Below, piece by piece: positions 1 to 52,294 of a stretch of DNA of 64,000 nt. The notes below the pieces were generated by a model. It saw nothing but the letters and a program-made list of their open reading frames with translations, was not told where the DNA came from and made no database searches. How positions within the stretch are numbered: the stretch's first letter is position 1; the number at the start of each line of letters is the position of its first letter. The stretch covers positions 1-64,000 of IMG/VR virus record IMGVR_UViG_3300023223_000630. One strand, given 5' to 3'. Origin of the DNA: a virus. Position numbers and translations under genes: made by a program.

Positions 1-127
1 ATTATTAAAACAATGTATATCCAATGAACTAGCAGAAGCAAATAGGTTAAAGAGATTAGAAATAATGAAAGATGATGATTATATGACACTTGAATTATTG
101 AAAGAAGAATTAAAGGATCAAGCATGA
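1..127 (+). CDS. 3' end of an upstream gene (partial)
   Basis: Frame open from window edge (first full codon nt 2) to TGA 125-127; charged helical tail ...LELLKEELKDQA; ATGA overlap with next start. Confidence 0.4.
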   Translation, partial: LLKQCISNELAEANRLKRLEIMKDDDYMTLELLKEELKDQA

Positions 128-5825: not shown

Positions 5826-6569
5826 ATGATTTATATTATGACTGATAAAGTCGAAAAAACAGAAAGTAAAGACGATACAGTAGAGAAATCTAATTCTTCT
5901 ATCGATCTCTTGACTACAATTGTTCAAAAACAAGATAAACAACTTGAAGAGCTTTCAAAAGCTCAACAAGATGTTATGTCCAAATTGGATGATTTATCAA
6001 AAGCAGTTGATTCCGACAAATCCATTAAACCGGAACACGGAATGGAACTCAAACCAAAAACAGAAGGTGATAACGTAGGAGATAAAACAAAAGCTCCAAA
6101 CGAAGTAGCACCGGATGACCGTCATGGTATCAAACCAGAAACGGGAAAGGAACTTACTTCAACTGATGGATCTCAACTCTCAATGGAAACAAAAGCCGAT
6201 GAGAAAAAAGAAGAGATGAAAGACAATTATAAAAAAGAAGATAAGAAAGAAGATAAAGTAGAAAAAGACGATACTAAAGAAGAAGAATACAAAGATAAAA
6301 AGCGTGAGGATATAAAGAAATCAGAAATCCTAAAGGGAGAGTATGATTACAAAATTACTCATACTGTAAAACCATTTGAATTTGTAAACAAATCAGAAGG
6401 TGCAATTCCAACAGGATATCAAATCATGCAAGCCATGTTTAACGGTTATGCTGTCAATGGAGTTAAAAAATGTGTCAATGTTTCACAAGTACACGCTGAA
6501 ACCCTAAGTAGGTTACACAAAGGTGACTTTGGAACAGGATTACCTCAAGGAGATGCTTATCTAATATGA
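5826..6569 (+). CDS. scaffolding-like protein
   Basis: K/E/D-rich low-complexity, coiled-coil-like, directly upstream of the capsid gene with ATGA overlap. Real start may be ATG 5838. Confidence 0.55.
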   Translation: MIYIMTDKVEKTESKDDTVEKSNSSIDLLTTIVQKQDKQLEELSKAQQDVMSKLDDLSKAVDSDKSIKPEHGMELKPKTEGDNVGDKTKAPNEVAPDDRHGIKPETGKELTSTDGSQLSMETKADEKKEEMKDNYKKEDKKEDKVEKDDTKEEEYKDKKREDIKKSEILKGEYDYKITHTVKPFEFVNKSEGAIPTGYQIMQAMFNGYAVNGVKKCVNVSQVHAETLSRLHKGDFGTGLPQGDAYLI

Positions 6570-13396: not shown

Positions 13397-14320
13397 ATGG
13401 CTGAACCAACTGCTCCCGTAAATTTATCTTCTACAATATCAAATGCTACAGTTATTTTATCATGGGATCCGGTTGTATTTGTACCTACAGTAGATACATA
13501 TACAGTAGAATTCAGCACAGATCAGATAAATTGGACACTATTCAGTGATACCATAACAGATACAACAGCATCAGTAAATCCACTTGAAAATAATCAATTG
13601 TTCTTTTTTAGGGTATTTGCAGTAAATATAGATGGTACAAGTCCGGCATCGGGAATAGTATCAAATACACCTGAAAATACACCACAGGTAGAATACTGTA
13701 CTGCAGGAAACATAGCAGACAGACTAAGAATTGATATCAATGCAAACACTGATCCAAACATTACCATGGTGAATGAGTTTATTTTAGATAATCAGGATTT
13801 CATAGACAGAGAAACAGGCCATACCTGGATGTCAGAAAAACAAATGCGTGAAGAGGAATTAACATTGACACGAATATGGGATTGGGGTAAAGGAATGCCA
13901 TTATATCTAAAACACAGACAAATGAAACTTCCATTGGATACATCTAAAGGTGACAAGATAGAATTATGGAATGGGGTAGACTGGATAGAACAAGATGTAA
14001 CAGATAATGATTTGTTTATACTAGATGAAGTAAAAGGAATATTATATGTAAGAGGATATTTCTTTTCATTTTTTAGAAACAACAGATTCAGACTAACATA
14101 CAGATATGGCGGTGATCAGGAAAACGGGTTAATTCCAAAGGATATTAGAAAAGCATGTATCCTAATGACCTGTATTGATGTGTTAGATACTGACTTTAAA
14201 ATGTCTCAGATTGGATACGGGGGAGAGGGTAACATTAGAAAAGAGGAAGTAATGAACAGATGGCAAAAACAGATAGATAAAATATTACGTAACAGGATGG
14301 AATTACTAACGGTATATTAG
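13397..14320 (+). CDS. head-tail adaptor (gp6/connector-like) with N-terminal FN3 domain
   Basis: aa 1-95 FN3-like (APVNLSS..ILSWDPV..YTVEFS..INWT..FFFRVFAVNIDGTSPAS). The rest has an adaptor-like signature (IADRLRIDINANTDPNITMVNEFILDNQDFIDRETGHTW). Confidence 0.55.
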   Translation: MAEPTAPVNLSSTISNATVILSWDPVVFVPTVDTYTVEFSTDQINWTLFSDTITDTTASVNPLENNQLFFFRVFAVNIDGTSPASGIVSNTPENTPQVEYCTAGNIADRLRIDINANTDPNITMVNEFILDNQDFIDRETGHTWMSEKQMREEELTLTRIWDWGKGMPLYLKHRQMKLPLDTSKGDKIELWNGVDWIEQDVTDNDLFILDEVKGILYVRGYFFSFFRNNRFRLTYRYGGDQENGLIPKDIRKACILMTCIDVLDTDFKMSQIGYGGEGNIRKEEVMNRWQKQIDKILRNRMELLTVY

Positions 14321-16051: not shown

Positions 16052-17293
16052 ATGCCAAGTACAACTGTCTCTGCTAGTTCTGTATATGTAGAATTTGGAT
16101 ATGAGGGTGAATTTGGGGGTGGAAGCACATCATTCCCTATGCTTTTTGGAAAAGAGCAAAAATTAACAAGTTTAGAACTTAACGTAAATCAACTGCCATT
16201 AGGACAATTATACAGTCCGGAAATCGAATGTTATGTATATGGAAAAAATGAAGGAAGTGCAACAGTAGAATATGTATTGGCTCAGCCATTTAATTTATCA
16301 AGTATATTTGGAGCACCGTTCAGTGAAGAAACTGGAGTATCATCAGGTATATTTACCCATGAATGGACTTCTGATCCAGACAATCCAACTCTGGACTTGG
16401 AATCATCAGTTGTAGCTACAACTGTAACTGATCCTGGAACCAATCATATATTAGGTGAATCTATAATTATTGTAGCCTCATCCGCTGAAGATCCTAATGC
16501 TGATGCAGCCGGATTTGTTAGTGAAATAGGTGGATCAGGAGAATTAAAAAAGATTACACTAACAAATAGCGGTTATGGATACACAAGTGCTCCAGCAATA
16601 ACTTTTACTAATGGATCCGGTTCTGCTGATGCAATCATATCACCTGTAAGTACAAGAAACATAGATACAATGGCATTAGAGATAGGAATTAAATCATCTC
16701 TTGATGCCGGTGATGACTTTGTAAGAAATATTGCCGGAGCAATATCACCTACCATGAGTTTTAGAATGTCATTAAATGAACCAATAAGAGTAACACAGGA
16801 ATTAAAATGGGGTATTGAAACACCAAGTGCAACAATAGATACAAGTATTGGAACAAATCTAGATTTTACACCATATGTATTTGCAGATGCAGAGATTAAA
16901 GTAAACGGATCAGTAGTAGCAACAGTACAAGATTTCGATTTAAACATTAACAGCAATGCAGAACTATTATGGGAATTAGGAACTGCTAATGCTTCTGGAG
17001 CATGGAGGAAAATTCTGGAAATGACCGGAAAACTAAATGTAACTGTAAAAGACGCTTCATTTTATAATATAGTAGCCGGAAGATCAGAACAGACTTCCAT
17101 GACTGTAACTATTACAAACGGATTATCTGGTACTGCTGAAAAATCTATTGTAATGGTTTTTGCAGGAATAGGATTTGGAACACATAACAATACAGGAATA
17201 GAACCGGGAGAACTAGTATTACAAAATATGGATTTCCAAGCAAGAACCGTAAAAATCACTGCAACAAATGATACTAAATCACAGCCAATATAA
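16052..17293 (+). CDS. major tail protein (putative) with inserted GxGY module
   Basis: 413 aa, own promoter-like AAAACTTTAAAAATA upstream, precedes the chaperone/tape-measure pair; contains ELKKITLTNSGYGYTSAPAITFTNGSG. Confidence 0.5.
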   Translation: MPSTTVSASSVYVEFGYEGEFGGGSTSFPMLFGKEQKLTSLELNVNQLPLGQLYSPEIECYVYGKNEGSATVEYVLAQPFNLSSIFGAPFSEETGVSSGIFTHEWTSDPDNPTLDLESSVVATTVTDPGTNHILGESIIIVASSAEDPNADAAGFVSEIGGSGELKKITLTNSGYGYTSAPAITFTNGSGSADAIISPVSTRNIDTMALEIGIKSSLDAGDDFVRNIAGAISPTMSFRMSLNEPIRVTQELKWGIETPSATIDTSIGTNLDFTPYVFADAEIKVNGSVVATVQDFDLNINSNAELLWELGTANASGAWRKILEMTGKLNVTVKDASFYNIVAGRSEQTSMTVTITNGLSGTAEKSIVMVFAGIGFGTHNNTGIEPGELVLQNMDFQARTVKITATNDTKSQPI

Positions 17294-19571: not shown

Positions 19572-20315
19572 ATGGTAGATATATTTTTAATAAAATTTGA
19601 TCCTACTGGAGCAGAATTATTTAGATATTTATTGGGAAATTTTAAAAGATTTTCATATGATATTAATTCACCTGTAACTCCGGCTCCTTTACCAGAAGAA
19701 GACAGTGATGAGAATGTACTTGTAAAAATTGAGGGGAATAGTAGTGCAATATCATTATCATGGAAAATATTAGACACTCCAACAAACAGAGAACAGTTAG
19801 TACCAGTAGCTACAAAAACGGTGTTTGAAAACCTGTTATTTTTTAAAAATCAGTTTAGATCTGTAAGTATTAATGATTCATATGCATTGTTAATAGATGA
19901 TTCACTTACACCTATAACATGGTTTGGAACCATTACACAAATTCATACAGATACAATAGATGGAGAAAATCTTACATTAAATGCAAATTGTAAGTTTATG
20001 GAAGGAAACGTAGTAGCACTTTATGATATAGATGTTCCTAGTCCTCCACAGAACTTTAGTGCAGTTGCGGGAGGAACGGGTGAGATTGATCTTACATGGA
20101 CAGCTCCATTTGATGAAGGAAGCACGGGAGTAATTGGATATCGTATACAGTTTGCAATTATTGGTCAAGATTTTACAAACAAAGACGTAGGAGTCGTGTT
20201 AAGTGATACACTCACAGGCTTGGTTAGTAATGAAATATACCAGGTAAGAGTTGCAGCAATATCAAATAACGGTGTAGGAAGATTTACCTTTGCAAAAGAG
20301 GTTACTGTTCTTTGA
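19572..20315 (+). CDS. distal tail protein (Dit-like, by position) with C-terminal FN3 domain
   Basis: 247 aa right after the tape measure; C-terminus PSPPQNFSAVAGGTGEIDLTWTAP..GYRIQFA..YQVRVAAISNNGVG. Confidence 0.5.
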   Translation: MVDIFLIKFDPTGAELFRYLLGNFKRFSYDINSPVTPAPLPEEDSDENVLVKIEGNSSAISLSWKILDTPTNREQLVPVATKTVFENLLFFKNQFRSVSINDSYALLIDDSLTPITWFGTITQIHTDTIDGENLTLNANCKFMEGNVVALYDIDVPSPPQNFSAVAGGTGEIDLTWTAPFDEGSTGVIGYRIQFAIIGQDFTNKDVGVVLSDTLTGLVSNEIYQVRVAAISNNGVGRFTFAKEVTVL

Positions 20316-24548: not shown

Positions 24549-25061
24549 GTGGATGATTTAATTCTTACAAAAGATAATAAAATTAAAACAGATGGTAGAA
24601 AAAAAGCCGGAAAAGCTAATGCTAAATCATTAAAATATGCTAGAAAACTACCAATAAAATGTAACGATTGTATTTACAGACCTAAAGAAGAAATGGGAAA
24701 TGGTGTATGTACTGTATATAAAAGAGATGGTATATGCTCAATAAGAAAAGACCTGGCAAAACTCACTGACAGTCTTGATGGAGAAAGAAACGTAGACAAA
24801 GTATCTATAATGATGCAGGATACTTTTGAGAGTAATTATGAGATTTTAAAATTTTATGAGGCATTGGAGCATCAAATGGGTATAATAAACCCTGACAGAA
24901 TAAAATTACTAAATTCCCTTACAAACATGGGGAAAATAATCAATGAAATGTCTGCAAAAACAATCAAAACAATTGAAGAAACACACACTCTATCAGATGA
25001 AAAGAAGGAAGAAATATCAAGGATGGTAAGGATTGAAATTCAAGAATCTACCCCCGATTGA
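24549..25061 (+). CDS. terminase small subunit, tentative
   Basis: 170 aa, basic N-terminus, helical, directly upstream of and overlapping the large terminase; GTG start in the track. Confidence 0.35.
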   Translation: MDDLILTKDNKIKTDGRKKAGKANAKSLKYARKLPIKCNDCIYRPKEEMGNGVCTVYKRDGICSIRKDLAKLTDSLDGERNVDKVSIMMQDTFESNYEILKFYEALEHQMGIINPDRIKLLNSLTNMGKIINEMSAKTIKTIEETHTLSDEKKEEISRMVRIEIQESTPD

Positions 25062-26481
25062 AACCATAGGTGATCATCCAGAAGAATATGCTAAAGTAAT
25101 AACAAAATGTATAGCAAGTCCGGTATATTTTGTAGAACAGTTTTTGAATTTCAAGATTCATGAGTATAACAAGGAATTCATAGACTGTATGGACAGGTTT
25201 ATTGTATATGTTACTGGAAGACAGGTTGGAAAATCAACTAGTGCTGCACTAAAGGCAATTCATTTTGGATATTTTGCTCCACTCTTTGCTAAAAATGTGG
25301 AGGATAACGGGGAATGCAATGTAGTTATCATATCCCCTACAGAATATCAGTCAATACTTATCTTTAGAAAAATAAGATCATTCATACACAAATCACCAAC
25401 ATTATCAAAATGTATTGTAAGAGAAACAAAAAGAGATATAGAAATTAGATGGTTTGATGGCGGGGGAACTACAAACTTTATTGTCAGACCAGTAGGTGAT
25501 AACGGTGAGAGTGTACGAGGAATTACAACACACTTTGCAATTATAGATGAATGTGCATATATCCCACAAAAAGTATTTGAAGCATTCCTACCATCAGCAA
25601 TGACTACCAGACCAAAAATACTCTACACATCAACACCTGGAGGAAAGTTTGGTAATTTCTGGGAAGCAACTGAAAACTGGTACAAATCATATGAAAAAGG
25701 AAAACTAAAAGAAGAAAGAGAAAAAACAGATGTTCTACAATGGGTTAAATTCCATGTAACATCATTGGATAATCCCGATACTGCAAGTGATCCAGTATTT
25801 CTTAAAATGCTTGCAACTACTACAAAATCAGCACAGGAGCAAGAAGTGTATGGATTATTCAGGGAAGGCGGTAACAGTCTAATATCCCATAATTTATTAC
25901 AGGATTCACTACTCCCAATTAAAAGACCAAAAACATTTGATTATTATGATATGGGAGTAGATACATCAGGTAAAGGTCAGGATGAGACAGTAATTATAAT
26001 ATTCGGGGTAAAAGATGGCATCGTATATCCAGTACATGTTTACACTGAAAATACAACAGAACAGCACGAATTAGTAAAGAAAATAAAATCACTACATGAT
26101 AAGGAATGCCATTGCAGACGTATATACATAGACGAAACCGGAATGGGATATGAGTTAGTTGCACTATGTTATAAGAAATACTCTTCACTAAATGCATTTG
26201 GAATAAATTTCCTAGCTGAAAAAACAAATATCTATGTAAATCTAGTAAAACTATTTGAGGATAGAAAGATAAATCTTACACTATTAGAGGAACATCATAG
26301 AGACAAACTGGTAAAACAAATTACACATATGTATTGGGATTATGGAAAGTATAAGGATCAGAAACCTAAAGTAAGAACTGATTTTGATGATGATTATAGT
26401 GATGCTTCTGCGTTAGGCTGTTTTGGTCAATTGCGGGGAGCCAGTTTTCAAGTGTTGCCTGATGAATTTGTATGGGGATAA
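25033..26481 (+). CDS. terminase large subunit
   Basis: Walker A YVTGRQVGKST, Walker B FAIIDECAYI; C-terminal RNase H-like nuclease motifs GVDTSGKGQDETVIIIFG and IYIDETGMG. TTG start needed (frame opens at 25030). Confidence 0.85.
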   Translation: MKFKNLPPIETIGDHPEEYAKVITKCIASPVYFVEQFLNFKIHEYNKEFIDCMDRFIVYVTGRQVGKSTSAALKAIHFGYFAPLFAKNVEDNGECNVVIISPTEYQSILIFRKIRSFIHKSPTLSKCIVRETKRDIEIRWFDGGGTTNFIVRPVGDNGESVRGITTHFAIIDECAYIPQKVFEAFLPSAMTTRPKILYTSTPGGKFGNFWEATENWYKSYEKGKLKEEREKTDVLQWVKFHVTSLDNPDTASDPVFLKMLATTTKSAQEQEVYGLFREGGNSLISHNLLQDSLLPIKRPKTFDYYDMGVDTSGKGQDETVIIIFGVKDGIVYPVHVYTENTTEQHELVKKIKSLHDKECHCRRIYIDETGMGYELVALCYKKYSSLNAFGINFLAEKTNIYVNLVKLFEDRKINLTLLEEHHRDKLVKQITHMYWDYGKYKDQKPKVRTDFDDDYSDASALGCFGQLRGASFQVLPDEFVWG

Positions 26482-35781: not shown

Positions 35782-36066
35782 ATGACAAAATTTCTAACAC
35801 ATGTGTCAAAGAAACATGTTACCATTTATAATGAATTATTAGTTACAGTAGCAGGATCAAAACTTGACAAGACAAAAATAATATTTCAGGCCATAAAGGA
35901 ATTTATAGACAGACAAAAAAATGATGAACCACTCATTGTAAACAAAATACACTGGGAAAAATGTTTTGATAACTTGGAAGGCATAAAAGATTTCCAATCA
36001 TTACAACAAGAAATAAATAACCTACAGTTGTATAAGGATAAAGTTGAACGAATCAGATTTAAATAA
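35782..36066 (+). CDS. hypothetical protein (94 aa)
   Basis: Start abuts the previous stop; helical. Confidence 0.45.
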   Translation: MTKFLTHVSKKHVTIYNELLVTVAGSKLDKTKIIFQAIKEFIDRQKNDEPLIVNKIHWEKCFDNLEGIKDFQSLQQEINNLQLYKDKVERIRFK

Positions 36067-38470
36067 ATTACGCAATCGAGGATTAAACGTATTCCCACTT
36101 AAACCAAAGTCAAAGTTTCCTATGGGAACATGGAAAGAGTTTCAAAGTGTACAGTATGATGGTGAGTTCCCGGAAGGATGCAATTATGGTATAGTGTGTG
36201 GTAGTATATCAGGTAACTTGTTTGTATTGGATCTTGATGATATATCATTGTACAAGTACTTTCAGGATTTCCACACATTCACAGTAAAAACCGGGAAAGG
36301 TTATCACCTGTATTTTAGGAGTCATGGATTAAACATACCATCAATGAAAACTGATGATTCCATAGGAAGACACATTGATATAAAATCTGAAGGTGGATAT
36401 GTATTAGCACCTGGTTCAATACATCCAGACACTCTTACACCATATAATATCATAAATGACGTAGAGATTAAAGTTATTGATCCATCACTCATTAAACAAA
36501 GATTGGTAGAAATAGGATTTGATGAGTTTAATGAAAGAAATATTGAGAAAATCAAAGCCGGTAGTACAGAGGGGGATCGTAATAATAACGCATTCAAGTA
36601 TGTTGTATTTGTAGTAAATGAATATGGTCTAAGTGGTGTACCATTAAAGGAAGCATTATACAAGTTAAATGAAAAGAATAATCCACCACTCCCAACATAT
36701 GAATTAGATAATATTTTAGAATCTGCATTAAATTATGTAAATCTACAGGAAAAAATTGACTCTAAAGATCTGGAGATAGAAAGATTTGTTGATGGTGTAA
36801 AGCCACGTTCAATAACAATGCAGGAGATAAACACAAGTTATGAAGGTATACTGGTATCATTTGATGCTATAGTTACTGGAGTGAGTGAAAGATTTACATT
36901 TACAACTGAGGCAGAATTTATTTGCCCCATATGTAGTAGTACGGATACGGGGTATTGTGACGAGTATTACATCATGGGGGAGCCATACTGTAAGGATGAC
37001 AAAAGAAAAATGAATATCATTAATAAAACAAAAATAACTGACTCAATTCAATTACTTAGAATAGAGGAATTTTTAGAAACTGCAAGAGAAAATACACCCG
37101 TAGAGTATGATGCAGAAATTATAGGTGATGATGTCGGGGAGGCATTTATGAGCCAAAAGAAAAGATTCACTGGAAGATTTAGAAGTATATCAGAGAAAGG
37201 TAAACGATATAATAAAATAATATTTCAAATTACATCCATGACTGACTTGGAGCAGACTACCAGTTGTCTACCAAGTGAGGAAGAGTTGATACAATGGAGG
37301 AAAATACCTAACATATTTGAAAAAGTTACAAACAGTATTGCACCTGAAATGCTAATCAACCCACTTATAAAACAGGCCATAATGCTATCAGTTGCAGGAG
37401 GAGTTTCGTTAAATGGTAAACGTGCTGATATACATGTCGCACTACCAGGTGATGCACAATTGGGAAAATCTGAATTATTAAAAGCATTTCATGAATTAAT
37501 CCCCGGAAGTGGATTAACAGTTGGTACACAAAGTACGGGTGTAGGATTAACTGTATCAATGGTAAAATCACATACTGGAGCACTAATACCAAAGGCAGGA
37601 TTTCTCCCAAAGTATACAGGTTATCCCGTGTTCATTGATGAGGGTGATAAAATGAAACCTGAAGATATGGATGCAATGCTACAATGTATGGAACAACAAA
37701 TAGCAGTAGCTACAAAGGCAGGATACCCAAATGTAAAGTTTGCAGCAGTTAATAGTATTGTGTTTGCCGGAAATCCAAAGCACGGGAAATTCATTAAAAA
37801 TATACCAATAATGCAACAGTTAAAAATGTCTGAACCATTCCTTACACGATTTGATATTATATTTTTGGTACTTGATGAGAATAATGAGGAACTAGATGAC
37901 AAAATAAGAAATCATATCAGAGAGTATAGAGAGGGAAATCCAAATTTTATGAAAAAAGATGAGTTACAAAGATATTTCACATATGTAAGGACTTTAAGAC
38001 CAATCATACCAAAATCATTAGAGCCTGGAATAGATGCATTACACAAAAAAATGCGAAAGCTAAACACAGAACAATCCGGAATAAACATTGGAATGAGACA
38101 GTATTATGGATTAAACAGACTAGTAACATCATGTGCTAGCTGTAATTTACGAGAAGAGGCAACACAAGAAGATTTAGATATCGTAAAAAGTATAGTATCA
38201 GCAGCACTAAAATCCCTTGATATGAATCTTGAAAGCGGGCAAGCAAGAGATATAATAACTAGCACAAAAAATACAAAATCCAAATGCTTTGATGTAACGT
38301 ATAATGGTATATGTGATAGTGAGGGAACGATAAATAAAGATGAGTTTATCATAGCATTATCCAAGACTGACTTTTACACTGGTATTACTGCAGAAACAAT
38401 ATGGGATGGATATGTAAAAATGGGTAAAGTCATTCTATTAAATGATACAGGTAGGTATAGACTGGTATAA
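36044..38470 (+). CDS. PrimPol - PriCT - MCM helicase fusion protein
   Basis: The N-terminus carries PrimPol motifs FVLDLDD, GYHLYF and IDIKSEGGYVLAPGSIH, followed by a PriCT-like segment (DRNNNAF..NNPPLPTYELDNILESA) and a Cys4 module (CPICSS..YCDEYY..YCKDD). The C-terminal MCM core has IKQAIMLSVAGG, Walker A GDAQLGKSELLK, Walker B VFIDEGDKM, CMEQQIAVATKAGY, VFAGNP and LTRFDIIFLVLD. TTG start. Confidence 0.8.
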   Translation: MNESDLNKLRNRGLNVFPLKPKSKFPMGTWKEFQSVQYDGEFPEGCNYGIVCGSISGNLFVLDLDDISLYKYFQDFHTFTVKTGKGYHLYFRSHGLNIPSMKTDDSIGRHIDIKSEGGYVLAPGSIHPDTLTPYNIINDVEIKVIDPSLIKQRLVEIGFDEFNERNIEKIKAGSTEGDRNNNAFKYVVFVVNEYGLSGVPLKEALYKLNEKNNPPLPTYELDNILESALNYVNLQEKIDSKDLEIERFVDGVKPRSITMQEINTSYEGILVSFDAIVTGVSERFTFTTEAEFICPICSSTDTGYCDEYYIMGEPYCKDDKRKMNIINKTKITDSIQLLRIEEFLETARENTPVEYDAEIIGDDVGEAFMSQKKRFTGRFRSISEKGKRYNKIIFQITSMTDLEQTTSCLPSEEELIQWRKIPNIFEKVTNSIAPEMLINPLIKQAIMLSVAGGVSLNGKRADIHVALPGDAQLGKSELLKAFHELIPGSGLTVGTQSTGVGLTVSMVKSHTGALIPKAGFLPKYTGYPVFIDEGDKMKPEDMDAMLQCMEQQIAVATKAGYPNVKFAAVNSIVFAGNPKHGKFIKNIPIMQQLKMSEPFLTRFDIIFLVLDENNEELDDKIRNHIREYREGNPNFMKKDELQRYFTYVRTLRPIIPKSLEPGIDALHKKMRKLNTEQSGINIGMRQYYGLNRLVTSCASCNLREEATQEDLDIVKSIVSAALKSLDMNLESGQARDIITSTKNTKSKCFDVTYNGICDSEGTINKDEFIIALSKTDFYTGITAETIWDGYVKMGKVILLNDTGRYRLV

Positions 38471-41187: not shown

Positions 41188-41363
41188 ATCACAATATCCG
41201 GGAACCCTAAAAAAATTCCATATGTAAAAAATGCAAGAAAAATCTTAATCATTTATCTGCAGACAACCAATGGTTACACGCTGAAATGTGTAGAAAACAA
41301 AATTCATTATTTGATTATGATATGGATAATGATTTAGATGGTATTAAAAAAATAGTATCATAG
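41180..41363 (+). pseudogene. mini-ORF s8 split by an A7 tract (frameshifted gene, recoding site or homopolymer error)
   Basis: ATG 41180 frame stops at 41225-41227. The zinc-finger body (..NSICKKCKKNLNHLSADNQWLHAEMCRKQ...IVS, to TAG 41361-41363) is in the +1 frame, which opens at 41211 inside AAAAAAA (41209-41215) and has no start codon. Confidence 0.35.
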
Positions 41364-41576
41364 CATATTGATTATTTCATCATCAGATAATTCATTCATT
41401 CTATATTCCCCGCCTTTACAGTATATATGAATATCACTCTGCTTTGATACATACCAAAGAAACACCGTAAATAGGAATAAGGGGATTCCCACTACGGGTA
41501 TGAGTAAAAGCAAGGAAGTAACCATTGGAATCAGAAATAACCTTCTTGCTCTTATCATGATAGTGTAATAGTACAA
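41358..41576 (-). CDS. small membrane protein (72 aa, 2 TM)
   Basis: LFLIPMVTSLLLLIPVVGIPLFLFTVFLWYV. Confidence 0.45.
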   Translation of the reverse strand: MYYYTIMIRARRLFLIPMVTSLLLLIPVVGIPLFLFTVFLWYVSKQSDIHIYCKGGEYRMNELSDDEIINML

Positions 41577-42008: not shown

Positions 42009-42089
42009 AAGCACGGGCTCCGTCTAATCTATGGGTGATGATTTCCGGAGTTATAAACCCAAAAAATGGGTTGTACCCTGGAAATTTAA

Positions 42090-42163
42090 TGGACTCGGTG
42101 GGATTTGAACCCACGACTAAGGTATGTTCAGTACCCTGCTCTACCACACTAAACTACGAGCCC
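42090..42163 (-). tRNA. tRNA-Phe(GAA)-like
   Basis: Minus-strand read: GGGCTCG TA GTTT-AGTGTGGTA-GAGC A GGGTA-CTGAACA-TACCT TAGTC GTGGG-TTCAAAT-CCCAC CGAGTCC A. All four stems pair. An AT-rich TATA-like tract lies upstream (42165-42195) and a T6 run downstream. No encoded CCA. C at position 37 is unusual. Confidence 0.8.
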
Positions 42164-42195
42164 ACGAACAAATAAAAATATTATAATTAAAAATG

Positions 42196-42240
42196 TGTCT
42201 CTCATGCTGAACATTTATCGGGTTTCCCCCATGAGAGACA
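42196..42240. repeat. 11-bp perfect hairpin (TGTCTCTCATG / CATGAGAGACA, 23-nt loop)
   Basis: Arms at 42196-42206 and 42230-42240, between the end of the minus-strand transcription units and the tRNA promoter. Confidence 0.5.
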
Positions 42241-42469
42241 TAATTATCAAGACCATTTTACCTTTTGGAGGCGGTGGAGCCTCAGTAGGTTCTAGCGGTA
42301 CTGGATAACATTATACTATACAGATAGACAAATTAATAGTTTTTGAAAATAATTATTTACACAATGATACAAATGGTAGGAGGTAAATGTTAGAAGACAC
42401 TGGGAATTATTACAGTGTAAACCCCCTACCGGTACAACTCTATATGTTTAGTATAAAAATGGTTGTTTA

Positions 42470-42586
42470 TTACACATGTGTTGATAATTTTATAATATCA
42501 TATCTTTCCTGTTTTGTTAATGTGCCTTTTTGAATCATCATATCCATTAGTAACATGATTAGTGCAGGAGTATCTATTTTTCCCAT
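42470..42586 (-). CDS. hypothetical mini-protein (38 aa)
   Basis: MGKIDTPALIMLLMDMMIQKGTLTKQERYDIIKLSTHV. Confidence 0.3.
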   Translation of the reverse strand: MGKIDTPALIMLLMDMMIQKGTLTKQERYDIIKLSTHV

Positions 42587-42810
42587 TATAATATCATACA
42601 AGTATTATACGTTATTAAGTTGATCCTTGGTATACAATAAAGATCCCTACTTTTCATCCTTTGATTCTCGCTCTTTCAGCATTGTACATTGCCTACCGAA
42701 GGTTTCTTCTTAAGACTATGGATTTCTTCTGCAGAATACTTTCCAAATAGGGTAATTATCAATGATCATACCATCTATTAAACATAACTAAATAATTTTA
42801 AAAAAAAGGA

Positions 42811-43461
42811 TTATGGTAGATGGAACTTTGAGAGTTCATAATACATCATATATTGTGGCTCGTCTGTTAGGTCAGTAGTTGTTACGGTACATTCATTACC
42901 ATAATCTGCTGCTTCTATTAGATCATATTGAGTTGCTTTTTTAGGATATACTTCAATGTATGTAGTTTTTTCAAATTGATCAGTCGCACAGTCATCTACG
43001 TGTTTGTGTGTTATTTTGTTATCAAGTAGAATATCTACTTCATTTAATGCGTTTGATGTTCCATCCTTTAGACTCTCGCCAAATGACATGACTAGTTCAG
43101 TCGAATAATAATAGTTCACTTTGGCTCGATTATGCACATCCCATAGTGAAAAGACTAGTTTGCCTTTGCAGGGTATGGTATTGTCACCATTTGTAGGATC
43201 GTCATAGGCTAGACCCTCCCATGTTTTTTGAGGTGTTTCATATCGTACACCATTTCTGTATGGATCAAGATATGATTTACTAAATGAAACACAGCTATCC
43301 CTATCTGGATTCTCACCGAAATCCCAAGTTATCCATGTTGTTAGAGTGCTTGGGTCAAAATCAACTTTTACTTCATTTGTTGTTTCTGCATATGCTGATG
43401 GTACTAGTAGTAATGCAACTAGTGATAATACCATCAATGATACATATAGTATTGTTTTCAT
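42811..43461 (-). CDS. exported protein (216 aa)
   Basis: Signal peptide MKTILYVSLMVLSLVALLLVPSAYA; Cys-containing beta-rich body. Confidence 0.6.
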   Translation of the reverse strand: MKTILYVSLMVLSLVALLLVPSAYAETTNEVKVDFDPSTLTTWITWDFGENPDRDSCVSFSKSYLDPYRNGVRYETPQKTWEGLAYDDPTNGDNTIPCKGKLVFSLWDVHNRAKVNYYYSTELVMSFGESLKDGTSNALNEVDILLDNKITHKHVDDCATDQFEKTTYIEVYPKKATQYDLIEAADYGNECTVTTTDLTDEPQYMMYYELSKFHLP

Positions 43462-43520
43462 GAATATCGTGATTTATTGTATAGTATATAGTTATTTAAT
43501 TAAAAAAAGAAAGGGTGGGG

Positions 43521-44678
43521 TTAGGAGAGTAATGAAACACCTAAACCGTTTGTACTATCAGATATTGATGCCCAAGGAATTACTACTGAATATGTGCTTG
43601 TTACACCGTTTATTGTAGCTGTGCCTTGACCAGTGTAGATTCCTACAATGTCGTGATCACCCCAATCATACACTGGAGCTCCACTATCACCTTTTGCTCC
43701 ACTATCAGCGGTCATGAGTATGATTTTAAGACCGTTTGAATCAGTGATGATATACTGTACTGTTTCATCAAAGTTCCCTGTTTGTGTACCTGAAATATCC
43801 AATTCGTCACCTACAGTTATAGTTTTTGAACCTGTTATGGATGCAGAAACACCAGAACTTACCCAAACTTTGGATACGTTAGTTCTTGAATTGGTATCTG
43901 TGATGAATAGACAGTCACAATTTACTTCATCATCAATTTTATCACCACTGTTTACAGTTCCAATTTTGTAATAAGTAGTGGATTTGTATGGCTGATAGAT
44001 ACTATCATTCACATCATAACAATGTCCAGCAGTAAGATATCCAGTTGTTGTACCTTGTTTTACTGGAAGCCCAAGTGTGCAGCGATCACCATCTTGATTT
44101 TTGATTTGGATCCCGCCTTGAAGCGGTTCACAATTGTCAGCTCTATATGTGCAATCATGACTAAAATCCGTATATTCAAAAGTGCCATAGCCTATTTGAA
44201 CGTCAAGAGTATCATCATTAATGATGGCCTCTATTTTTTGCTTCCATCTTGGATCTTCTGATTCTGGGGAAAGAATAACTGTTAGTTTGTTTTCACCAAC
44301 AAGTGACATTACAAGGGGTAAACCCTCAATATCTCCGAGTGATTTTTCAATGTCTAATAGTTTGTCGTGGTCTTTGTAGACTTTTTTGTTTTGTTCCCTA
44401 ATAGTCTTCATCTCTTGTACTTTTTCTTCAATCTTTTGCTCTATATTTTGAATTTGTACATTAGAAGTTGCACGTTCTTTTTCTAAACCGAGTTTGAAGA
44501 TATCCTGTACAGTGGACTGTACGTGTGGCGAATAGTTTTTCTTGATCTTTTGTTTTATTTCATTTGGCAATTCAATTACATTGAATATTGATGCATTAAT
44601 CATACTACTACTAAGTGGAATTAGTAGCAGTACTGCCAATGAAGCAAACAAAAAGATTTTTGTCGTTTTACTAGTCAT
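43521..44678 (-). CDS. exported chymotrypsin-fold (S1) serine protease
   Basis: N-terminal signal/anchor (IFLFASLAVLLLIPLSS), ~170-aa helical pro-region, then LTAGHCY (His), NCDCLFI (Asp), AKGDSGAPVY (Ser). Confidence 0.8.
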   Translation of the reverse strand: MTSKTTKIFLFASLAVLLLIPLSSSMINASIFNVIELPNEIKQKIKKNYSPHVQSTVQDIFKLGLEKERATSNVQIQNIEQKIEEKVQEMKTIREQNKKVYKDHDKLLDIEKSLGDIEGLPLVMSLVGENKLTVILSPESEDPRWKQKIEAIINDDTLDVQIGYGTFEYTDFSHDCTYRADNCEPLQGGIQIKNQDGDRCTLGLPVKQGTTTGYLTAGHCYDVNDSIYQPYKSTTYYKIGTVNSGDKIDDEVNCDCLFITDTNSRTNVSKVWVSSGVSASITGSKTITVGDELDISGTQTGNFDETVQYIITDSNGLKIILMTADSGAKGDSGAPVYDWGDHDIVGIYTGQGTATINGVTSTYSVVIPWASISDSTNGLGVSLLS

Positions 44679-45031
44679 TGAATAATAGTATGGTAAAAAT
44701 AATTATAAATCTATCTACTGTATCATAGCTTTAATAATTACAACATATTATAGCATTATTGTGATCTCTTTACTCACTATCTATGGGTGATAGTAATGAG
44801 GAAGAAAAACCGCTATTGCCTAGGAAACGGTAGCGGGGTCACAATGATGTAACCATTACACCAAAGGGTTACACATTATTAAAACTTTTTTATTTATGAG
44901 ATTAATATTTTCCAGCCTATAATTACAAGCACAGATATGAAAGAGACAACAAATCCTATATCTACAATACGTTTTATGACATCAAGTCTGTCAGTTGTAG
45001 TTTTGTTCCCCATTGATTATTACCTATATTA

Positions 45032-45712
45032 CTAAAGTGTTATAGTGATATTAATTGATTGGCCTATTCCTATATCATTAATTGCTTTGATATAAAATGA
45101 ATATTCTACATCAGATTCTATTCCATGCAATATTATGCCAGTTGCTATTGATGGCATCTGAATATAAGTAGCAATACGAGGATCATCACTAGTATAATAT
45201 ATTAAATAATCAGTGATTGAAGAACCACCGTCACTTATTGGCGGATCCCAAGTAAAATTAACATTACCATTACCTAAATCTTCAACAGCCAAATTAGTTG
45301 GTACACCAGGGATAGTATCTACTGTATAATAAAATGAGCCAGTAGCATTAGCACCAAGGTTTGCATCATACCATCCAATAGCTGTATAATTCCCTGTTGT
45401 CCATTCTACACCTAGTATATCATTTCCAGCAATTAATGTATGATAAAACAGTTGTTCAAAAAACATTGTTTCTATTCCTGTATATACTAAATCATCATTC
45501 TCATTATAAATATCATAATGAGCATCTACAGGGGGCGGATAATTAATCTCAGATGTAATTACAATTACATCATCTTGAGTGTACATACTATTATCAAATT
45601 CCATAGTAATTTCATAAGCCTTTAATCTGGCATCGGCTTCCTGTACACCAGCTAAAGGAATAATCAATACCATTACAGCCAATACACTAATCATCAATAG
45701 TTTTTCATTCAT
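45032..45712 (-). CDS. exported protein with C-terminal FN3 domain
   Basis: I prefer the start MNEKLLMISVLAVMVLIIPLAG (45712), since the track start 45745 overlaps the upstream gene. FN3: VPTNLAVEDLGNGNVNFTWDPPISDGGSSITDYLIYY...YSFYIKAINDIGIGQS. Confidence 0.6.
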   Translation of the reverse strand: MNEKLLMISVLAVMVLIIPLAGVQEADARLKAYEITMEFDNSMYTQDDVIVITSEINYPPPVDAHYDIYNENDDLVYTGIETMFFEQLFYHTLIAGNDILGVEWTTGNYTAIGWYDANLGANATGSFYYTVDTIPGVPTNLAVEDLGNGNVNFTWDPPISDGGSSITDYLIYYTSDDPRIATYIQMPSIATGIILHGIESDVEYSFYIKAINDIGIGQSINITITL

Positions 45713-45716
45713 GTTA

Positions 45717-46193
45717 TTACTCTTTTGACTGGATAGCCGGATCAATTGTTGTTTTTAATATTTCATTAATGTCTTTTCTATAATCTCCTAGTTGTTCATT
45801 AAGTTGTGCTTTGTAAATATAATCTTGAATCTTTTCCAGTTTTTCTTCTAGTTCCTGTTTTATGAATTGTAATCCTTGATTTGCACCCATTTCTGCAGCC
45901 AATCCCTTTGATATTTTAGCATTAAGTTCTGTTAGTCTTTTGTTTTCCTGTTTTAATTTATGAATTATTTTAGTTACTTCATTATAATCTATATCTGTGA
46001 ATAAAGATAAATCATATGACTCTGATTTTTCAGTTACATCATTAAAGTAGGATTCTCTAACCATGATAAAATCCGGGGAGAGGTATTTTTCCTTAAATGA
46101 TTGATTCTCTAAAACTTGTGAAATAAATTCCTCTTCATCATCTATATCATGCTCTTCTAAGAATTTTACAATGAACTCTTTAGTTATTTTCAT
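45717..46193 (-). CDS. hypothetical coiled-coil protein (158 aa)
   Basis: Heptad-like, acidic. Confidence 0.5.
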   Translation of the reverse strand: MKITKEFIVKFLEEHDIDDEEEFISQVLENQSFKEKYLSPDFIMVRESYFNDVTEKSESYDLSLFTDIDYNEVTKIIHKLKQENKRLTELNAKISKGLAAEMGANQGLQFIKQELEEKLEKIQDYIYKAQLNEQLGDYRKDINEILKTTIDPAIQSKE

Positions 46194-46579
46194 TTCATTA
46201 ACACCTTTTCTGAACGCTTTAACATTTTCATTTCGTGTTGTATAGATGTCAATACCTCTAAAACTTTGTCCATTTTATCAATTTTTTTAGGGATCCCCAT
46301 CTTAAGATCTGTAGGTGTAAGGTACACATCATAAACAATGTTACATTTTGACAATAATTCCTCATATTCTATCATGTATCCCATTCCCTTTTGTGTTATG
46401 GAGTAATCAGAGTTTATCAGCCTGTAATGTTGTAAGTTTTTTAAATGATTTTTAATCTTGTCAAATGACATTTTAGATCGAAGTTGAATGGATGTAGGTT
46501 TGAGATCCTGGGGATAATTTTGAATGACTTTTAATATATCATAGTATATTCTCTGTACTGTACGTCTATCTCTAGTCAT
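46190..46579 (-). CDS. winged-helix DNA-binding protein, tentative
   Basis: RIYYDILKVIQNYPQDLKPTSIQLRSKMSFDKIKNHLKNLQHYRLI..ITQKGMGY resembles archaeal wHTH regulators. Confidence 0.45.
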   Translation of the reverse strand: MTRDRRTVQRIYYDILKVIQNYPQDLKPTSIQLRSKMSFDKIKNHLKNLQHYRLINSDYSITQKGMGYMIEYEELLSKCNIVYDVYLTPTDLKMGIPKKIDKMDKVLEVLTSIQHEMKMLKRSEKVLMK

Positions 46580-46859: not shown

Positions 46860-47120
46860 ATGGGGAATATTAGCAAGTGGAAGGATATAGTCTGGAACCA
46901 AAATAGCAATTCATTTGAAGAAATGAAGATTGATTATTATGGTAGATGGATGAAGTATTCCGAATTTGGAAACAGACCTCATGATTATTCCTGGGAATTA
47001 GACCATATTGTAGGAAAAAATGAAGGAGGAGCAGACCATCCAAGTAATTTAAGAGCACTCAACTGGAGATCAAATGTAGCAAGAAACGGGAAAAAATACA
47101 AACAAAACGAAGTAGGCTAA
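46860..47120 (+). CDS. small HNH nuclease
   Basis: WELDHIVGKNEGGADHPSNLRALNWRSNVARNGK. Confidence 0.65.
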   Translation: MGNISKWKDIVWNQNSNSFEEMKIDYYGRWMKYSEFGNRPHDYSWELDHIVGKNEGGADHPSNLRALNWRSNVARNGKKYKQNEVG

Positions 47121-47281: not shown

Positions 47282-47366
47282 ATTGTTGTCACATAGACTG
47301 GTAATTGTGCTAACCTTATGAGTTAGAATCTCCACAGATTCGTGGGTTCAAATCCCTCCAACAACG
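47282..47366 (+). tRNA. atypical tRNA-like gene, anticodon UAU, long extra arm
   Basis: ATTGTTG TC ACAT-AGACTGGTAA-TTGT G CTAAC-CTTATGA-GTTAG AATCT-CCAC-AGATT-C GTGGG-TTCAAAT-CCCTC CAACAAC G. There is an A1:C72 mismatch and a T:T mismatch in the T stem. The T arm is one base different from the tRNA at 42090. A TATA-like AAATTATAAAAA lies just upstream. Confidence 0.45.
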
Positions 47367-47614: not shown

Positions 47615-47641
47615 TATTCGTAATTATACGTTTTGTATATA

Positions 47642-48577
47642 ATGTATAATTACATATTACTTGTAGGACTTGCAATGTTTTCCATATTCAGTGTTGCATA
47701 TGCTGAAGACTTTGGAAGAGTTAATGGTGATTATTTTAGAACCGGGGATTTCCTATCAGTTACATCACACTCTAATGATATTATGACATTTGATATTGTA
47801 GGTGAAAACTTTGAAAAAGGTTATACAATGGATCCCCGTGGTGGTACTGTCACATATGGAATGCCATTCCCTAGTGAAATGCCTAAAGGAGTTTACGATA
47901 TTACATTTAATAGTATCAACTATACTTCAACACAAAAAATTGGATATGGTGTACCACTTCCGGCATTTACATTACATGCAGAGAAAACCATTCATACACT
48001 AAATGAATATGCCTTTTTCTGGGGTCAGGTCATTGGAATAGAGCCCACTGACTACTCTTTTAATGGAAATGTACTTGTACAAATACTAGACAGTTCAGGA
48101 GAACTTTTAGAGGATAATTGGAGGGCAAGTCATGATACAGCTAGAACTGCTCAAGATGTTAAAGCCACAAAGTCAGAATTTAGAGCACAAATTAACAATG
48201 GTAAAACATTCCTAGTTACACAAAATGATGCTAATATTTTCGGGGATCAAGGAAGTAAAAGTATAAGACCAATTTTAGAAAATGGTTATAGAATATTTAT
48301 CAAAATTGATCCTATAATATACACAGCCGGTGAACAATATACATTAAAAGTAACTCATGATGGAATGGTGAAAAGTGTAAATTTCCGGATAATTGAACGT
48401 GATATTTTACCAATCTTTAATGTTACAATTGATACAGAAATATGTGAATATGAACAGTCCATATATGATACTTTGGAGAATAAAAGAGATAATTATATTA
48501 TAATTGGTGATCCTACATTAACTGAAAAAGTTACTTTACAGATGAATAATTTCAAGTTTACAGAGGGATGCAATTGA
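47642..48577 (+). CDS. exported protein (311 aa)
   Basis: Signal peptide MYNYILLVGLAMFSIFSVAYA from ATG 47642. Confidence 0.55.
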   Translation: MYNYILLVGLAMFSIFSVAYAEDFGRVNGDYFRTGDFLSVTSHSNDIMTFDIVGENFEKGYTMDPRGGTVTYGMPFPSEMPKGVYDITFNSINYTSTQKIGYGVPLPAFTLHAEKTIHTLNEYAFFWGQVIGIEPTDYSFNGNVLVQILDSSGELLEDNWRASHDTARTAQDVKATKSEFRAQINNGKTFLVTQNDANIFGDQGSKSIRPILENGYRIFIKIDPIIYTAGEQYTLKVTHDGMVKSVNFRIIERDILPIFNVTIDTEICEYEQSIYDTLENKRDNYIIIGDPTLTEKVTLQMNNFKFTEGCN

Positions 48578-49506: not shown

Positions 49507-49761
49507 TCATGCATCTAATTTCAACCAACTGAAATAATCAATACAGATATTTCCCCTCTCATTTTGTTTTATAATACATTTCTCAAAGGGAGAATACATT
49601 GCACTTGCAGATCTTACCGTAGAGTACTCACCACATATTTGTTCAGATGATATATTATTAGCATCATTTGAAAATGCTTCATTACATCCTGCAAATATTG
49701 CAGCCATACCAATTATTACAGTAATTATACCAATTATTATAATCCCAGTTCTTGTTTCCAT
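49507..49761 (-). CDS. small membrane-anchored protein (84 aa)
   Basis: GIIIIGIITVIIGMAAIFAG TM span. Confidence 0.45.
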   Translation of the reverse strand: METRTGIIIIGIITVIIGMAAIFAGCNEAFSNDANNISSEQICGEYSTVRSASAMYSPFEKCIIKQNERGNICIDYFSWLKLDA

Positions 49762-51278: not shown

Positions 51279-52294
51279 AACATATTACCAAACACTTTAC
51301 GAATTTAAGCGTTTAGTGTGTAACTTACCCATAAGTATAGACATAAAAGAATTATAATACTATTATCATGGGTCATGAAATTAAGCAGATATACAATACA
51401 TTTTGTGTATCATGCGGATCAACTCATACAACCAAGAACGGGAAGAGGAAAATTAAACATGGTGTAACACAAAGGTACAAGTGTTTAGAGTGTGGTACAA
51501 GATTCACCTGGAGAATAGGTTTTGAGAAAAAGCATTACAAAGGTGAGTTAATCACACTAGCAATACAAATGTATTATGCAGGACAATCATTAAGTAAGGT
51601 AGCACATACATTAAAGATGCTTGGTATCTCACCAACAAAGCAAACCATATGGAACTGGATTAACCAATACTCTTCTCGGATCTCCACTTTTTTAGAAACT
51701 GTTCCACCTGATGTCGGGGAGTCATGGAGGAGTGATGAAATGTATACCCATGTTAAAGGTAAAATTTCATATTTATTCATGATGATGGATGACGATACTA
51801 GATACATTCTAAGTCAAGAGTTAGCCAAAACAAAAGAGTATCATGATGCGTATAATTTGTTTAATAATGGTAGAATATTAGCTGGTAAAAAACCAAGTAT
51901 AGTAACTACTGACGGACTAAAGGCATACAAGAAAGCGTTTAACAGAGTATTTTATTCAAACACATTACCCCGAACTTATCATAATAGTATCATTAAACTC
52001 ACCGGGGATGCAAGTAATAACCTAATGGAAAGATTAAACTGTACCGTAAGAGATAGAGAAAAAACTTTTAGAGGTTTACAAAGTTATGATACTCCTATGT
52101 TTAAGGGGTATGTTATCTATTTTAATCATATTAGACCACATACCGCACTTAATGGAATGACACCAGGAGAAAAAGCTAATATCCATATTGAGGGACAAAA
52201 TAAATGGTTTACCCTCATCCAAAATTCAACACTTCAACAGATTTATAAATATGCTATATAAGTATATATTCCGAATTTTCCATATAAAGTATTT
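51279..52294 (+). mobile_element. IS6-family insertion sequence (limits only bounded by neighbouring genes)
   Basis: Contains the transposase gene. I could not find terminal inverted repeats or a clean target duplication. Confidence 0.4.
51368..52261 (+). CDS. IS6-family (IS240-type) DDE transposase with N-terminal zinc finger
   Basis: CVSCGS...RYKCLECGTRF; WRSDEMYTHVKGK.SYLFMMMD, IVTTDGLKAYKKAF, NNLMERLNCTVRDREKTFRG, YFNHIRPHTALNGMTPGE. Confidence 0.75.
   Translation: MGHEIKQIYNTFCVSCGSTHTTKNGKRKIKHGVTQRYKCLECGTRFTWRIGFEKKHYKGELITLAIQMYYAGQSLSKVAHTLKMLGISPTKQTIWNWINQYSSRISTFLETVPPDVGESWRSDEMYTHVKGKISYLFMMMDDDTRYILSQELAKTKEYHDAYNLFNNGRILAGKKPSIVTTDGLKAYKKAFNRVFYSNTLPRTYHNSIIKLTGDASNNLMERLNCTVRDREKTFRGLQSYDTPMFKGYVIYFNHIRPHTALNGMTPGEKANIHIEGQNKWFTLIQNSTLQQIYKYAI

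Follow-up and report, generated by a model that had tools for sequence, protein, structure and literature searches.

A predicted exported S1E-type serine protease in a tailed virus of thaumarchaeal type and its cellular relatives

The window, i.e. the whole stretch of DNA analysed here, comprises 64,000 nucleotides (nt) (positions 1 to 64,000) of the IMG/VR record IMGVR_UViG_3300023223_000630, which is 64,926 nt long, and belongs to a tailed archaeal virus of the thaumarchaeal type with a genome of ~65 kb. Its minus strand carries a gene for a 385-amino-acid (aa) pre-pro serine protease of the alpha-lytic protease/streptogrisin type, a member of S1 subfamily E (MEROPS S1E) with an intact catalytic domain and predicted to be active. 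We consider that this protease is probably a Sec-exported enzyme captured from a Nitrosopumilus-like, ammonia-oxidising host lineage and kept as a self-contained accessory ('moron'-like) gene. An earlier note on this DNA had taken it for the middle member of a three-gene island of secreted proteins, proposed to act as an egress or entry module. The exported-type protease held up in our analysis; the module did not.

Architecture, fold and family of the protease

As a single sequence, the protease matched nothing at threshold in Pfam, PHROG or NCBIfam, and its match to alpha-lytic protease in the PDB was weak (E ~2e-3). We therefore worked with its family, gathered from 5.8 billion proteins: 32 homologues were obtained, nearly all of 370-445 aa and collinear from residue 1, and 27 of them make up the family alignment and profile. 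Against the PDB, this profile retrieved alpha-lytic protease, the Lysobacter proteases L1 and L5, SGPA/SGPB and TFPA with E values from 5.6e-19 to 1e-12, and the TAGHC, D and GDSG triad residues line up with those of alpha-lytic protease. His219, Asp255 and Ser332 (in GDSG), as well as the pair Cys200 and Cys220, are invariant in the 27 homologues. The S1 triad of the streptogrisin/alpha-lytic clade, noticed in the earlier note, is thus confirmed at the profile level. Among the family members, 8 of the 27 matched Pfam Trypsin_2. The AlphaFold2 (AF2) model of the protease (mean pLDDT 83.8, pTM 0.82) agrees with this placement, as judged by Foldseek matches in the PDB to alpha-lytic protease, L5, SGPA/B and TFPA (E from 1e-8 to 7.5e-12, target-normalised TM-score 0.74-0.83). 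The protease is thus a divergent member of a well-known protease family.

The N-terminus, MTSKTTK followed by IFLFASLAVLLLIPL and SSSMINA/S (the slash marks the predicted cut), reads as a Sec signal peptide with a core of 15 residues. This N-terminal pattern and the Ala at -1 are conserved across the family, and AF2 gives pLDDT <50 at residues 1-32, the disordered signal region. Conservation of both the Cys pairs and the signal-peptide pattern speaks for a protein located outside the cytoplasm. A helical pro-region of ~170 aa had been proposed to precede the protease domain. It is present and modelled with confidence, with a length of ~150 aa: in the AF2 model, a helical hairpin (residues 39-114) is followed by a small alpha/beta subdomain (122-171) and a low-confidence linker (175-177). 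Since the N-terminus of mature alpha-lytic protease aligns at residue ~186, the pro-region should measure ~150 aa and the mature enzyme ~210 aa. Pro-region-assisted folding and autoprocessing are established for alpha-lytic protease, and by analogy the viral pro-region may serve as a folding chaperone and inhibitor. Pfam Pro_Al_protease was matched by one family member out of 27 (E=1.7e-4), and the pro-region chains of the PDB were not matched.

We compared the viral protease with known enzymes. It shares with alpha-lytic protease of Lysobacter enzymogenes and with L1/L5 of Lysobacter sp. XL1 the double-beta-barrel fold (TM-score 0.74-0.79), the TAGHC / D / GDSG context of the triad, a Cys42-Cys58-type disulfide pair and the pre-pro organisation, with a pro-region of ~150-166 aa, a mature part of ~200 aa and secretion, which is predicted for the viral protein. 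In contrast, sequence identity is ~20%, the Lysobacter enzymes are bacterial and not archaeal or viral, and the viral pro-region starts with a long helical hairpin, so that its similarity to that of alpha-lytic protease is not robust. Moreover, the viral protease has no Cys before GDSG and carries extra conserved cysteines (Cys176/183 and Cys254/256), and its host has no peptidoglycan. Streptogrisins A/B, Thermobifida fusca protease A and the Nocardiopsis protease likewise show the same subfamily-level fold and triad and are secreted pre-pro enzymes (profile E from 1e-12 to 1e-18, TM-score 0.74-0.83). These are nutritional proteases of actinobacteria, whereas the present family occurs in an archaeal virus and in Nitrosopumilus-type archaea, usually beside a membrane-anchored regulator.

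Virus-borne chymotrypsin-fold proteases are also found in bacterial viruses, such as the 'Peptidase S1' of Gordonia phage Yvonnetastic and the BFVD entry A0A0N9MU75, whose alignment with the protease spans 332 columns and takes in part of the N-terminal region (E=8.7e-13). These phage S1 peptidases are ~15% identical to the viral protease and their functions are uncharacterised. BFVD yielded distant phage S1 peptidases only. No relative of the protease family was found in GenBank phage records, and one motif-based scan of IMG/VR gave no family member; a match from IMG/VR, L006, was rejected as a high-GC actinobacterial-type protease. Our literature searches brought up no earlier account of an archaeal virus with an alpha-lytic-type protease.

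Cellular origin of the gene and its copy in a related virus

The protease family is chiefly cellular. An exhaustive profile search of 1.84 billion representatives returned 194 cluster representatives at E<=1e-30, mostly full-length proteins of ~370-430 aa. The clearest case is a 43%-identical, full-length homologue in the 1.87-Mb chromosome of a Nitrosopumilus metagenome-assembled genome (OZ244732.1), found in a scan with an alignment of 12 closer sequences. It is located between leucine/branched-chain biosynthesis genes (LeuA, acetolactate synthase) and DeoC, ADH and MGS genes. Other cellular contigs carry homologues together with PriS/PriL, DnaJ and ferredoxin, with TFIIB, CDC48 and a Na/H exchanger (a TARA ocean contig), with EF-1alpha, or among transposases and defence genes (a 109-kb contig). 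The Nitrosopumilus-type proteins are collinear with the viral one, with the same signal-peptide motif, pro-region and protease, and the cellular copies are 42-48% identical to it over 100% of the length. In a neighbour-joining tree (no bootstrap), the two viral sequences known pair and are nested between two cellular Nitrosopumilus-type subclades. This nesting and the cellular contexts show that the viral gene is host-derived.

The second viral sequence comes from L005, a 24.6-kb contig from another sample which is collinear with 36.9-58.9 kb of the window at 69-94% nt identity, the synteny running from the PrimPol-MCM gene across the protease. The two proteases are 94% identical at the aa level, with dS=0.195 synonymous and dN=0.027 nonsynonymous substitutions per site. 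The resulting dN/dS of 0.14 indicates purifying selection in the viral lineage. The upstream winged helix-turn-helix (wHTH) gene (79%) and the exported-looking 314-aa protein (75%) are conserved alongside. The contig also differs from the window by a PAPS-reductase-family gene (L005 18356-19546, 396 aa) inserted beside PrimPol-MCM.

L005 also answers the concern that the island might be host DNA, as the flank of a provirus, or an assembly chimera, which the earlier note had tied to homologues being found in cellular genomes only. That homologues are mostly cellular and that a tRNA gene lies at the boundary would fit such an origin. However, L005 provides an independent, collinear viral copy including both PrimPol-MCM and the protease, so that the gene is neither host flank nor chimera. 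In addition, no cellular housekeeping gene occurs among the ORFs (open reading frames) scanned at 42-64 kb, base composition is uniform, and the window protease is only 42-48% identical to the cellular copies. We rejected this explanation, whose probability we regard as negligible.

In cells, the protease usually has a partner. Ten distinct cellular contexts were examined, and in 7 of them a homologue of one ArsR-type regulator lies near the protease: it adjoins the protease in L001-3, L007, L008, L009, L019 and L020, and lies within 3 kb in L025. This regulator is ~180-250 aa long (138 aa as called in L019). Its N-terminal part is an ArsR-type winged helix, after which come a conserved segment of weak hydrophobicity (TM1), a loop of ~20-70 aa and a strongly hydrophobic C-terminal transmembrane segment with a Lys-rich end. 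At another locus (L004 10001-12491, the PriS/PriL contig), a serpin gene (PF00079) follows the protease homologue at 22 bp on the same strand, which suggests a protease-inhibitor pair. Two further cellular loci have neither regulator nor serpin. The viral copy lacks both partners, and no homologue of the membrane-anchored ArsR-type regulator was found in the window; the viral wHTH protein (HTH_45) was considered as one and rejected.

The regulator pairing and the serpin locus suggest regulated extracytoplasmic proteolysis in the host, in which the membrane-anchored regulator would either control the protease or be cleaved by it. The two genes may thus represent an unannotated regulated-proteolysis system or regulator-protease pair of Nitrosopumilus-type archaea. 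If the cellular protease cleaves the extracytoplasmic loop of the regulator or is controlled by the regulator, the viral protease, freed from its ArsR-type partner, could trigger or short-circuit this host pathway. The frequent proximity of a protein with HTH, TM1, loop and C-terminal transmembrane segment, the serpin found directly downstream at one locus and the lack of a regulator homologue in the window are all compatible with such a hijack. Adjacency, however, may mean nothing beyond transcriptional control of the protease by the regulator, the weak hydrophobicity of TM1 makes the topology uncertain, loop cleavage is putative and the pair is missing in three cellular contexts. We hold this explanation to be unlikely. 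If it were true, cleavage of an ArsR-type factor would define a new archaeal regulated-proteolysis pathway, hijacked by a virus.

Secreted serine proteases and serpins have been noted in genome analyses of Thaumarchaeota, where mixotrophy and self-regulation were discussed (PMC6790972); that account does not cover the present protease family. One could accordingly see the viral protease as a nutritional auxiliary gene, a secreted enzyme feeding the infected ammonia oxidiser with peptides or amino-nitrogen from environmental proteins. For Thaumarchaeota, mixotrophy has been discussed with secreted proteases, serpins and peptide transporters as its signs (PMC6790972), and the gene is host-derived like classical auxiliary genes. 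But a diffusible enzyme is a public good from which a single infection would draw little private gain, the window ORFs scanned include neither a transporter nor a peptidase as partner of the protease, and the cellular neighbours are regulators and not uptake systems. A nutritional role is accordingly most improbable.

Neighbouring genes and organisation of the window

Coordinates of the features are collected in Table 1.

Table 1. Features of the window and regulator genes of the cellular contigs
Feature	Position	Strand	Basis and remarks
UvsX/RadA-like recombinase	124-1128		
Portal	1568-3529		
Head maturation protease	4985-5791		PHROG E=1e-10; between portal and capsid genes
Major capsid protein	6566-7849		
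Tail tube	16052-17293		
Large terminase	25033-26481		
PrimPol-MCM fusion helicase	36044-38470	(+)	
tRNA-Phe(GAA)	42089-42164	(-)	ARAGORN, Rfam 56.6 bits; lower boundary of variable region
216-aa exported-looking protein	42811-43461	(-)	4 Cys, predicted all-beta
Spacer between protease and 216-aa genes	43462-43520	(-)	oligo-T ~43502-43513; TATATA 43485-43490, ~27 nt before ATG
Pre-pro serine protease, 385 aa	43521-44678	(-)	ORF, profile, Foldseek
Mature protease domain, aa ~176-385	43524-44153	(-)	two beta-barrels; conservation, alignment, fold
Catalytic Ser332	43683-43685	(-)	
Catalytic Asp255	43914-43916	(-)	
Catalytic His219	44022-44024	(-)	
Pro-region, aa ~30-175	44154-44591	(-)	AF2 secondary structure
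Predicted Sec signal peptide, aa 1-29	44592-44678	(-)	heuristic
Region upstream of protease	44679-44896	(-)	91% nt identity to L005 starts at 44896; hairpin and T-run ~44802-44836; TTTATAA 44703-44709, ~28 nt before protease ATG
Exported-looking FN3 protein, 237 aa	45032-45745	(-)	N-domain aa ~40-145 with invariant N-A-T sequon
158-aa coiled-coil protein	45717-46193	(-)	stop/start overlap with wHTH gene, operon fashion
wHTH regulator	46190-46579	(-)	Pfam HTH_45 E=2e-8; 79% identical in L005
tRNA-Ile(UAU), 85 nt	47282-47366	(+)	ARAGORN, Rfam 42.2 bits; upper boundary of variable region; conserved in L005
314-aa exported-looking protein	47633-48577	(+)	signal-like N-terminus; 74.6% aa identity in L005
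ArsR-type regulator gene, L001	7675-8370	(-)	
ArsR-type regulator gene, L007	5920-6486	(-)	
ArsR-type regulator gene, L008	7038-7781	(+)	
ArsR-type regulator gene, L009	7148-7690	(-)	
ArsR-type regulator gene, L019	9140-9556	(-)	
ArsR-type regulator gene, L020	3312-3929	(-)	
ArsR-type regulator gene, L025	1596-2183	(+)	

The protease gene is flanked by two other minus-strand ORFs, of 216 and 237 aa, and all three adjacent ORFs correspond exactly to those described in the earlier note. The 237-aa ORF begins at TTG, the ATG at 45712 being the likelier start. Each of the three encodes a basic n-region, a single N-terminal hydrophobic core of 15-18 residues (Kyte-Doolittle 12-mer maxima 3.0-3.2) and an A-x-A-type site, with cleavage predicted at PSAYA/E in the 216-aa protein, at MINA/S in the protease and at EADA/R in the FN3 protein. 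Export is predicted throughout from a hydrophobicity scan and the A-x-A site heuristic only. Signal-peptide-like N-termini occur in ~7 of the 95 non-overlapping ORFs of the window, four of them between 42.8 and 48.6 kb; at this frequency, three in a row are expected by chance ~0.04 times. Further exported-looking proteins are encoded at 4526, 22372 and 47633, as had been noticed within a few nucleotides. The 314-aa protein at 47633 matched no family in Pfam, PHROG or NCBIfam.

L005 keeps the protease without either neighbour. The ~940 bp holding the FN3 gene are replaced there by ~140 bp, and the ~890 bp holding the 216-aa gene by ~360 bp; tblastn of L005 retrieved neither the FN3 protein nor the 216-aa protein. 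The neighbours, in turn, occur singly elsewhere. The 216-aa protein has no Pfam, PHROG or NCBIfam match and just four homologues outside the window (70-78% identical), one of them on L016, a terminase-bearing contig whose fetched flanks have no further gene in common with the window. Its AF2 model, built on a 5-sequence alignment, has a pLDDT of 34.5, too low for a fold search. The FN3 protein does end in an FN3 domain, as had been recognised (residues 149-230, 45056-45301; Pfam fn3 E=4.8e-12). Its more distant homologues share the N-domain only and differ in their C-termini. One such homologue of the N-domain, in L018, is directly followed by an integrase, in an element otherwise unrelated within the fetched flanks. 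No protease was found near the flanking-gene homologues in these unrelated virus-like contigs, L016 and L018. Thus the three genes do not form a module: the flanking exported proteins are separate, independently mobile cargo genes and not partners of the protease. We also examined whether the FN3 protein is a paralogue of the structural FN3 protein at 19572-20315 or of the 314-aa protein. This was rejected, as the comparison showed generic FN3 similarity only (24% identity, E=2e-6 for a single comparison).

Transcription signals point in the same direction. A hairpin with a T-run and a TATA-like element precede the protease ATG, and an oligo-T tract followed by TATATA occupies the spacer between the protease and the 216-aa gene. 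The latter two genes, each with a putative terminator and promoter of its own, probably form separate and leaderless transcription units, as far as such motifs can indicate. A sigma-70 promoter and terminator scan gave counts at or below the shuffled expectation, this model being uninformative for an archaeal virus.

The variable region is bounded by two tRNA genes, which had been called tRNA-like and are confirmed by ARAGORN and Rfam; the Rfam scan found these two tRNAs only. The tRNA-Ile(UAU), unusually long with its 85 nt, corresponds to L005 8006-8090, and the slot of the window tRNA-Phe(GAA) holds a second tRNA-Ile(UAU) in L005 (11952-12037). L005 thus carries this tRNA twice, once in the tRNA-Phe slot, as if a tRNA cassette had been swapped. 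Directly upstream of the tRNA-Ile(UAU), and so bordering the variable region, lies a small gene for an HNH endonuclease (46860-47120, (+)). Between the tRNA-Phe and the 216-aa gene, ~640 nt (42170-42810, (-)) are mostly non-coding and without Rfam match; within them, 42295-42633 is 88% conserved in L005 and includes a conserved 38-codon ORF and several hairpin-forming segments. Beyond the tRNA-Phe, 1.9 kb downstream of the protease on the same strand, a 72-aa protein (41358-41576, (-); 79 aa in L005) has two hydrophobic segments, predicted as transmembrane (2-TM), and a C-terminal tail that is charged. Its resemblance to holins is one of form only, and it is the sole holin-like feature seen.

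The identity of the virus is given by its replication and virion genes. The replication protein is an 808-aa PrimPol-PriCT-MCM fusion, and the terminase finds its top GenBank virus match in Halogranum tailed virus 1, at 27% identity. GC content is low throughout (26-39%). The structural arm includes an NHL-repeat six-bladed beta-propeller protein, a 1118-aa protein with PHROG matches to head-decoration, tail-fiber and virion-structural families, and two FN3-bearing proteins (8334-9581, 9788-13144, 13397-14320 and 19572-20315, all (+)), possibly adhesins or decoration proteins. Among the ten longest ORFs of 50-63 kb, no confident family match was obtained except an IS6/IS240-type DDE transposase (51368-52261, (+)). 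It is also present in L005 (79% nt identity) and shares 37% identity with a transposase of L001, where the cellular protease homologue lies ~5 kb away. An 84-aa protein (49507-49761, (-)) has an N-terminal hydrophobic segment ending in FAGC, possibly lipobox-like, as in an archaeal lipoprotein. No tyrosine integrase or lysogeny module was identified among the window ORFs scanned.

The virion genes also bear on the protease itself. In the thaumarchaeal provirus Nvie-Pro1, a chymotrypsin-like prohead protease is fused to the capsid protein (PMC6563490), and the S1E enzyme could by this precedent be a capsid maturation protease. This was ruled out, since the window has a canonical head maturation protease of its own. 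Furthermore, the S1E enzyme carries a predicted signal peptide and a pro-region, is encoded on the opposite strand at a distance of 36 kb from the head module and has cellular proteins as its closest relatives. We therefore give this role virtually no credence.

Possible roles of the exported protease

The picture of a host-derived accessory gene is drawn from several observations: the nearest homologues are cellular, the viral copy is nested among them, the gene has TATA and T-tract signals of its own, L005 shows indels on both sides of it, and it is located in the variable, non-structural arm of the genome. Phage 'morons', or lysogenic-conversion cargo, are similarly self-contained promoter-gene-terminator units of host origin, often exported and located in variable regions near tRNA/att sites. 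Unlike with morons, the window ORFs scanned hold no tyrosine integrase or lysogeny module, and the protease is conserved in both known relatives.

We propose the following course of events. The protease gene would be transcribed from its own TATA promoter, and the signal peptide would carry the proenzyme across the cytoplasmic membrane. The ~150-aa pro-region would chaperone folding of the double-beta-barrel domain and then be cut off, possibly by autoprocessing. The mature enzyme of ~22 kDa would act outside the membrane of the infected cell, at its S-layer or beneath it, where it may cleave host envelope or surface-exposed proteins. The compartment would be the same as for the cellular homologues, and the substrate class probably the same as well.

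Several points weigh against this interpretation. Export is read from hydrophobicity and A-x-A heuristics alone, and the direction of transfer from a neighbour-joining tree without bootstrap. The likeness of the pro-region to that of alpha-lytic protease is not robust, given the single family match and the unmatched PDB chains described above. Cleavage of envelope proteins is a putative function suggested by the compartment, and protease activity is predicted.

The interpretation given in the earlier note stands in part. An exported-type S1 protease is indeed encoded by an archaeal tailed virus; a role in entry is unlikely because a Sec-exported protein would be separated from the virions assembling in the cytoplasm. 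As for egress, the protease could, late in infection, digest the S-layer, which is all the wall that the host has. In that case it would be a captured host surface-remodelling protease exported before lysis and would relate to its cellular counterparts, by analogy, as endolysins do to autolysins. For the same reason, cellular homologues do not refute a lytic role, endolysins being likewise related to autolysins.

Virus-encoded hydrolases directed at the wall are known in the exported endolysins of phages, with signal peptides or signal-arrest-release (SAR) sequences, and in PeiP/PeiW. Exported endolysins reach the wall via Sec before lysis. Muralytic endolysins are unrelated to the viral protease in fold and chemistry, and S-layer cleavage by the latter is putative. 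PeiP and PeiW are pseudomurein endoisopeptidases of methanogen viruses; they are cysteine peptidases, again unrelated in chemistry and fold. Among archaeal tailed viruses, accepted lysins are limited to the Pei enzymes, and apart from them egress of archaeal head-tailed viruses is described as 'completely uncharacterized' (PMC10791045, PMC12596118), in line with the background given in the earlier note.

The predicted export would bring the protease to the right compartment for egress, we recognised no further candidate for lysis in the window, and the egress effectors of head-tailed archaeal viruses are unknown (PMC10791045). Two related viruses conserve the protease under purifying selection, the small conserved 2-TM protein with its charged tail is encoded 1.9 kb downstream on the same strand, and the structurally nearest enzymes include the wall-lytic Lysobacter proteases. 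On the other hand, distribution is narrow: since the motif-based IMG/VR scan and the GenBank phage records contain no such protease, it is not a general solution for these viruses. The gene is also located in the variable accessory arm behind regulator genes, away from the late structural genes, and host cells have orthologous-type genes in ordinary chromosomal contexts. Finally, the enzyme would be exported once made, with no evident control of timing. The protease is therefore a legitimate but weakly supported egress candidate, and we regard this role as conceivable but rather doubtful.

Alternatively, the protease may remodel the cell surface. Together with other secreted cargo, it would trim or mask the receptor, as superinfection exclusion or receptor destruction, so that no further virion adsorbs or progeny are not lost on debris. 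S-layer proteins act as receptors for archaeal tailed viruses (PMC10791045). The moron-like layout, with its own promoter and terminator, a tRNA-bounded variable region and swappable exported neighbours, would suit such a function, and so would the L018 homologue of the FN3-gene N-domain beside an integrase, a typical position for cargo. Nevertheless, the receptor is putative here, the protease is, unlike its neighbours, conserved between the two related viruses, and no lysogeny module or tyrosine integrase is seen in the ORFs scanned. Surface remodelling is a rather doubtful, if conceivable, function, on a par with egress.

These results have implications for both the archaea and their viruses. 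They reveal a thaumarchaeal protease family that had not been annotated before; it comprises at least 194 sequence clusters and habitually has a membrane-anchored regulator beside it. They also document that viruses of ammonia oxidisers, organisms of global importance, have taken over a secreted enzyme from their hosts. How head-tailed archaeal viruses leave cells that have an S-layer only is an open question (PMC10791045), for which a virus-borne exported protease is a rare concrete candidate. If the egress role were true, the protease would be the first egress effector identified for a head-tailed virus of an S-layer-only archaeon.

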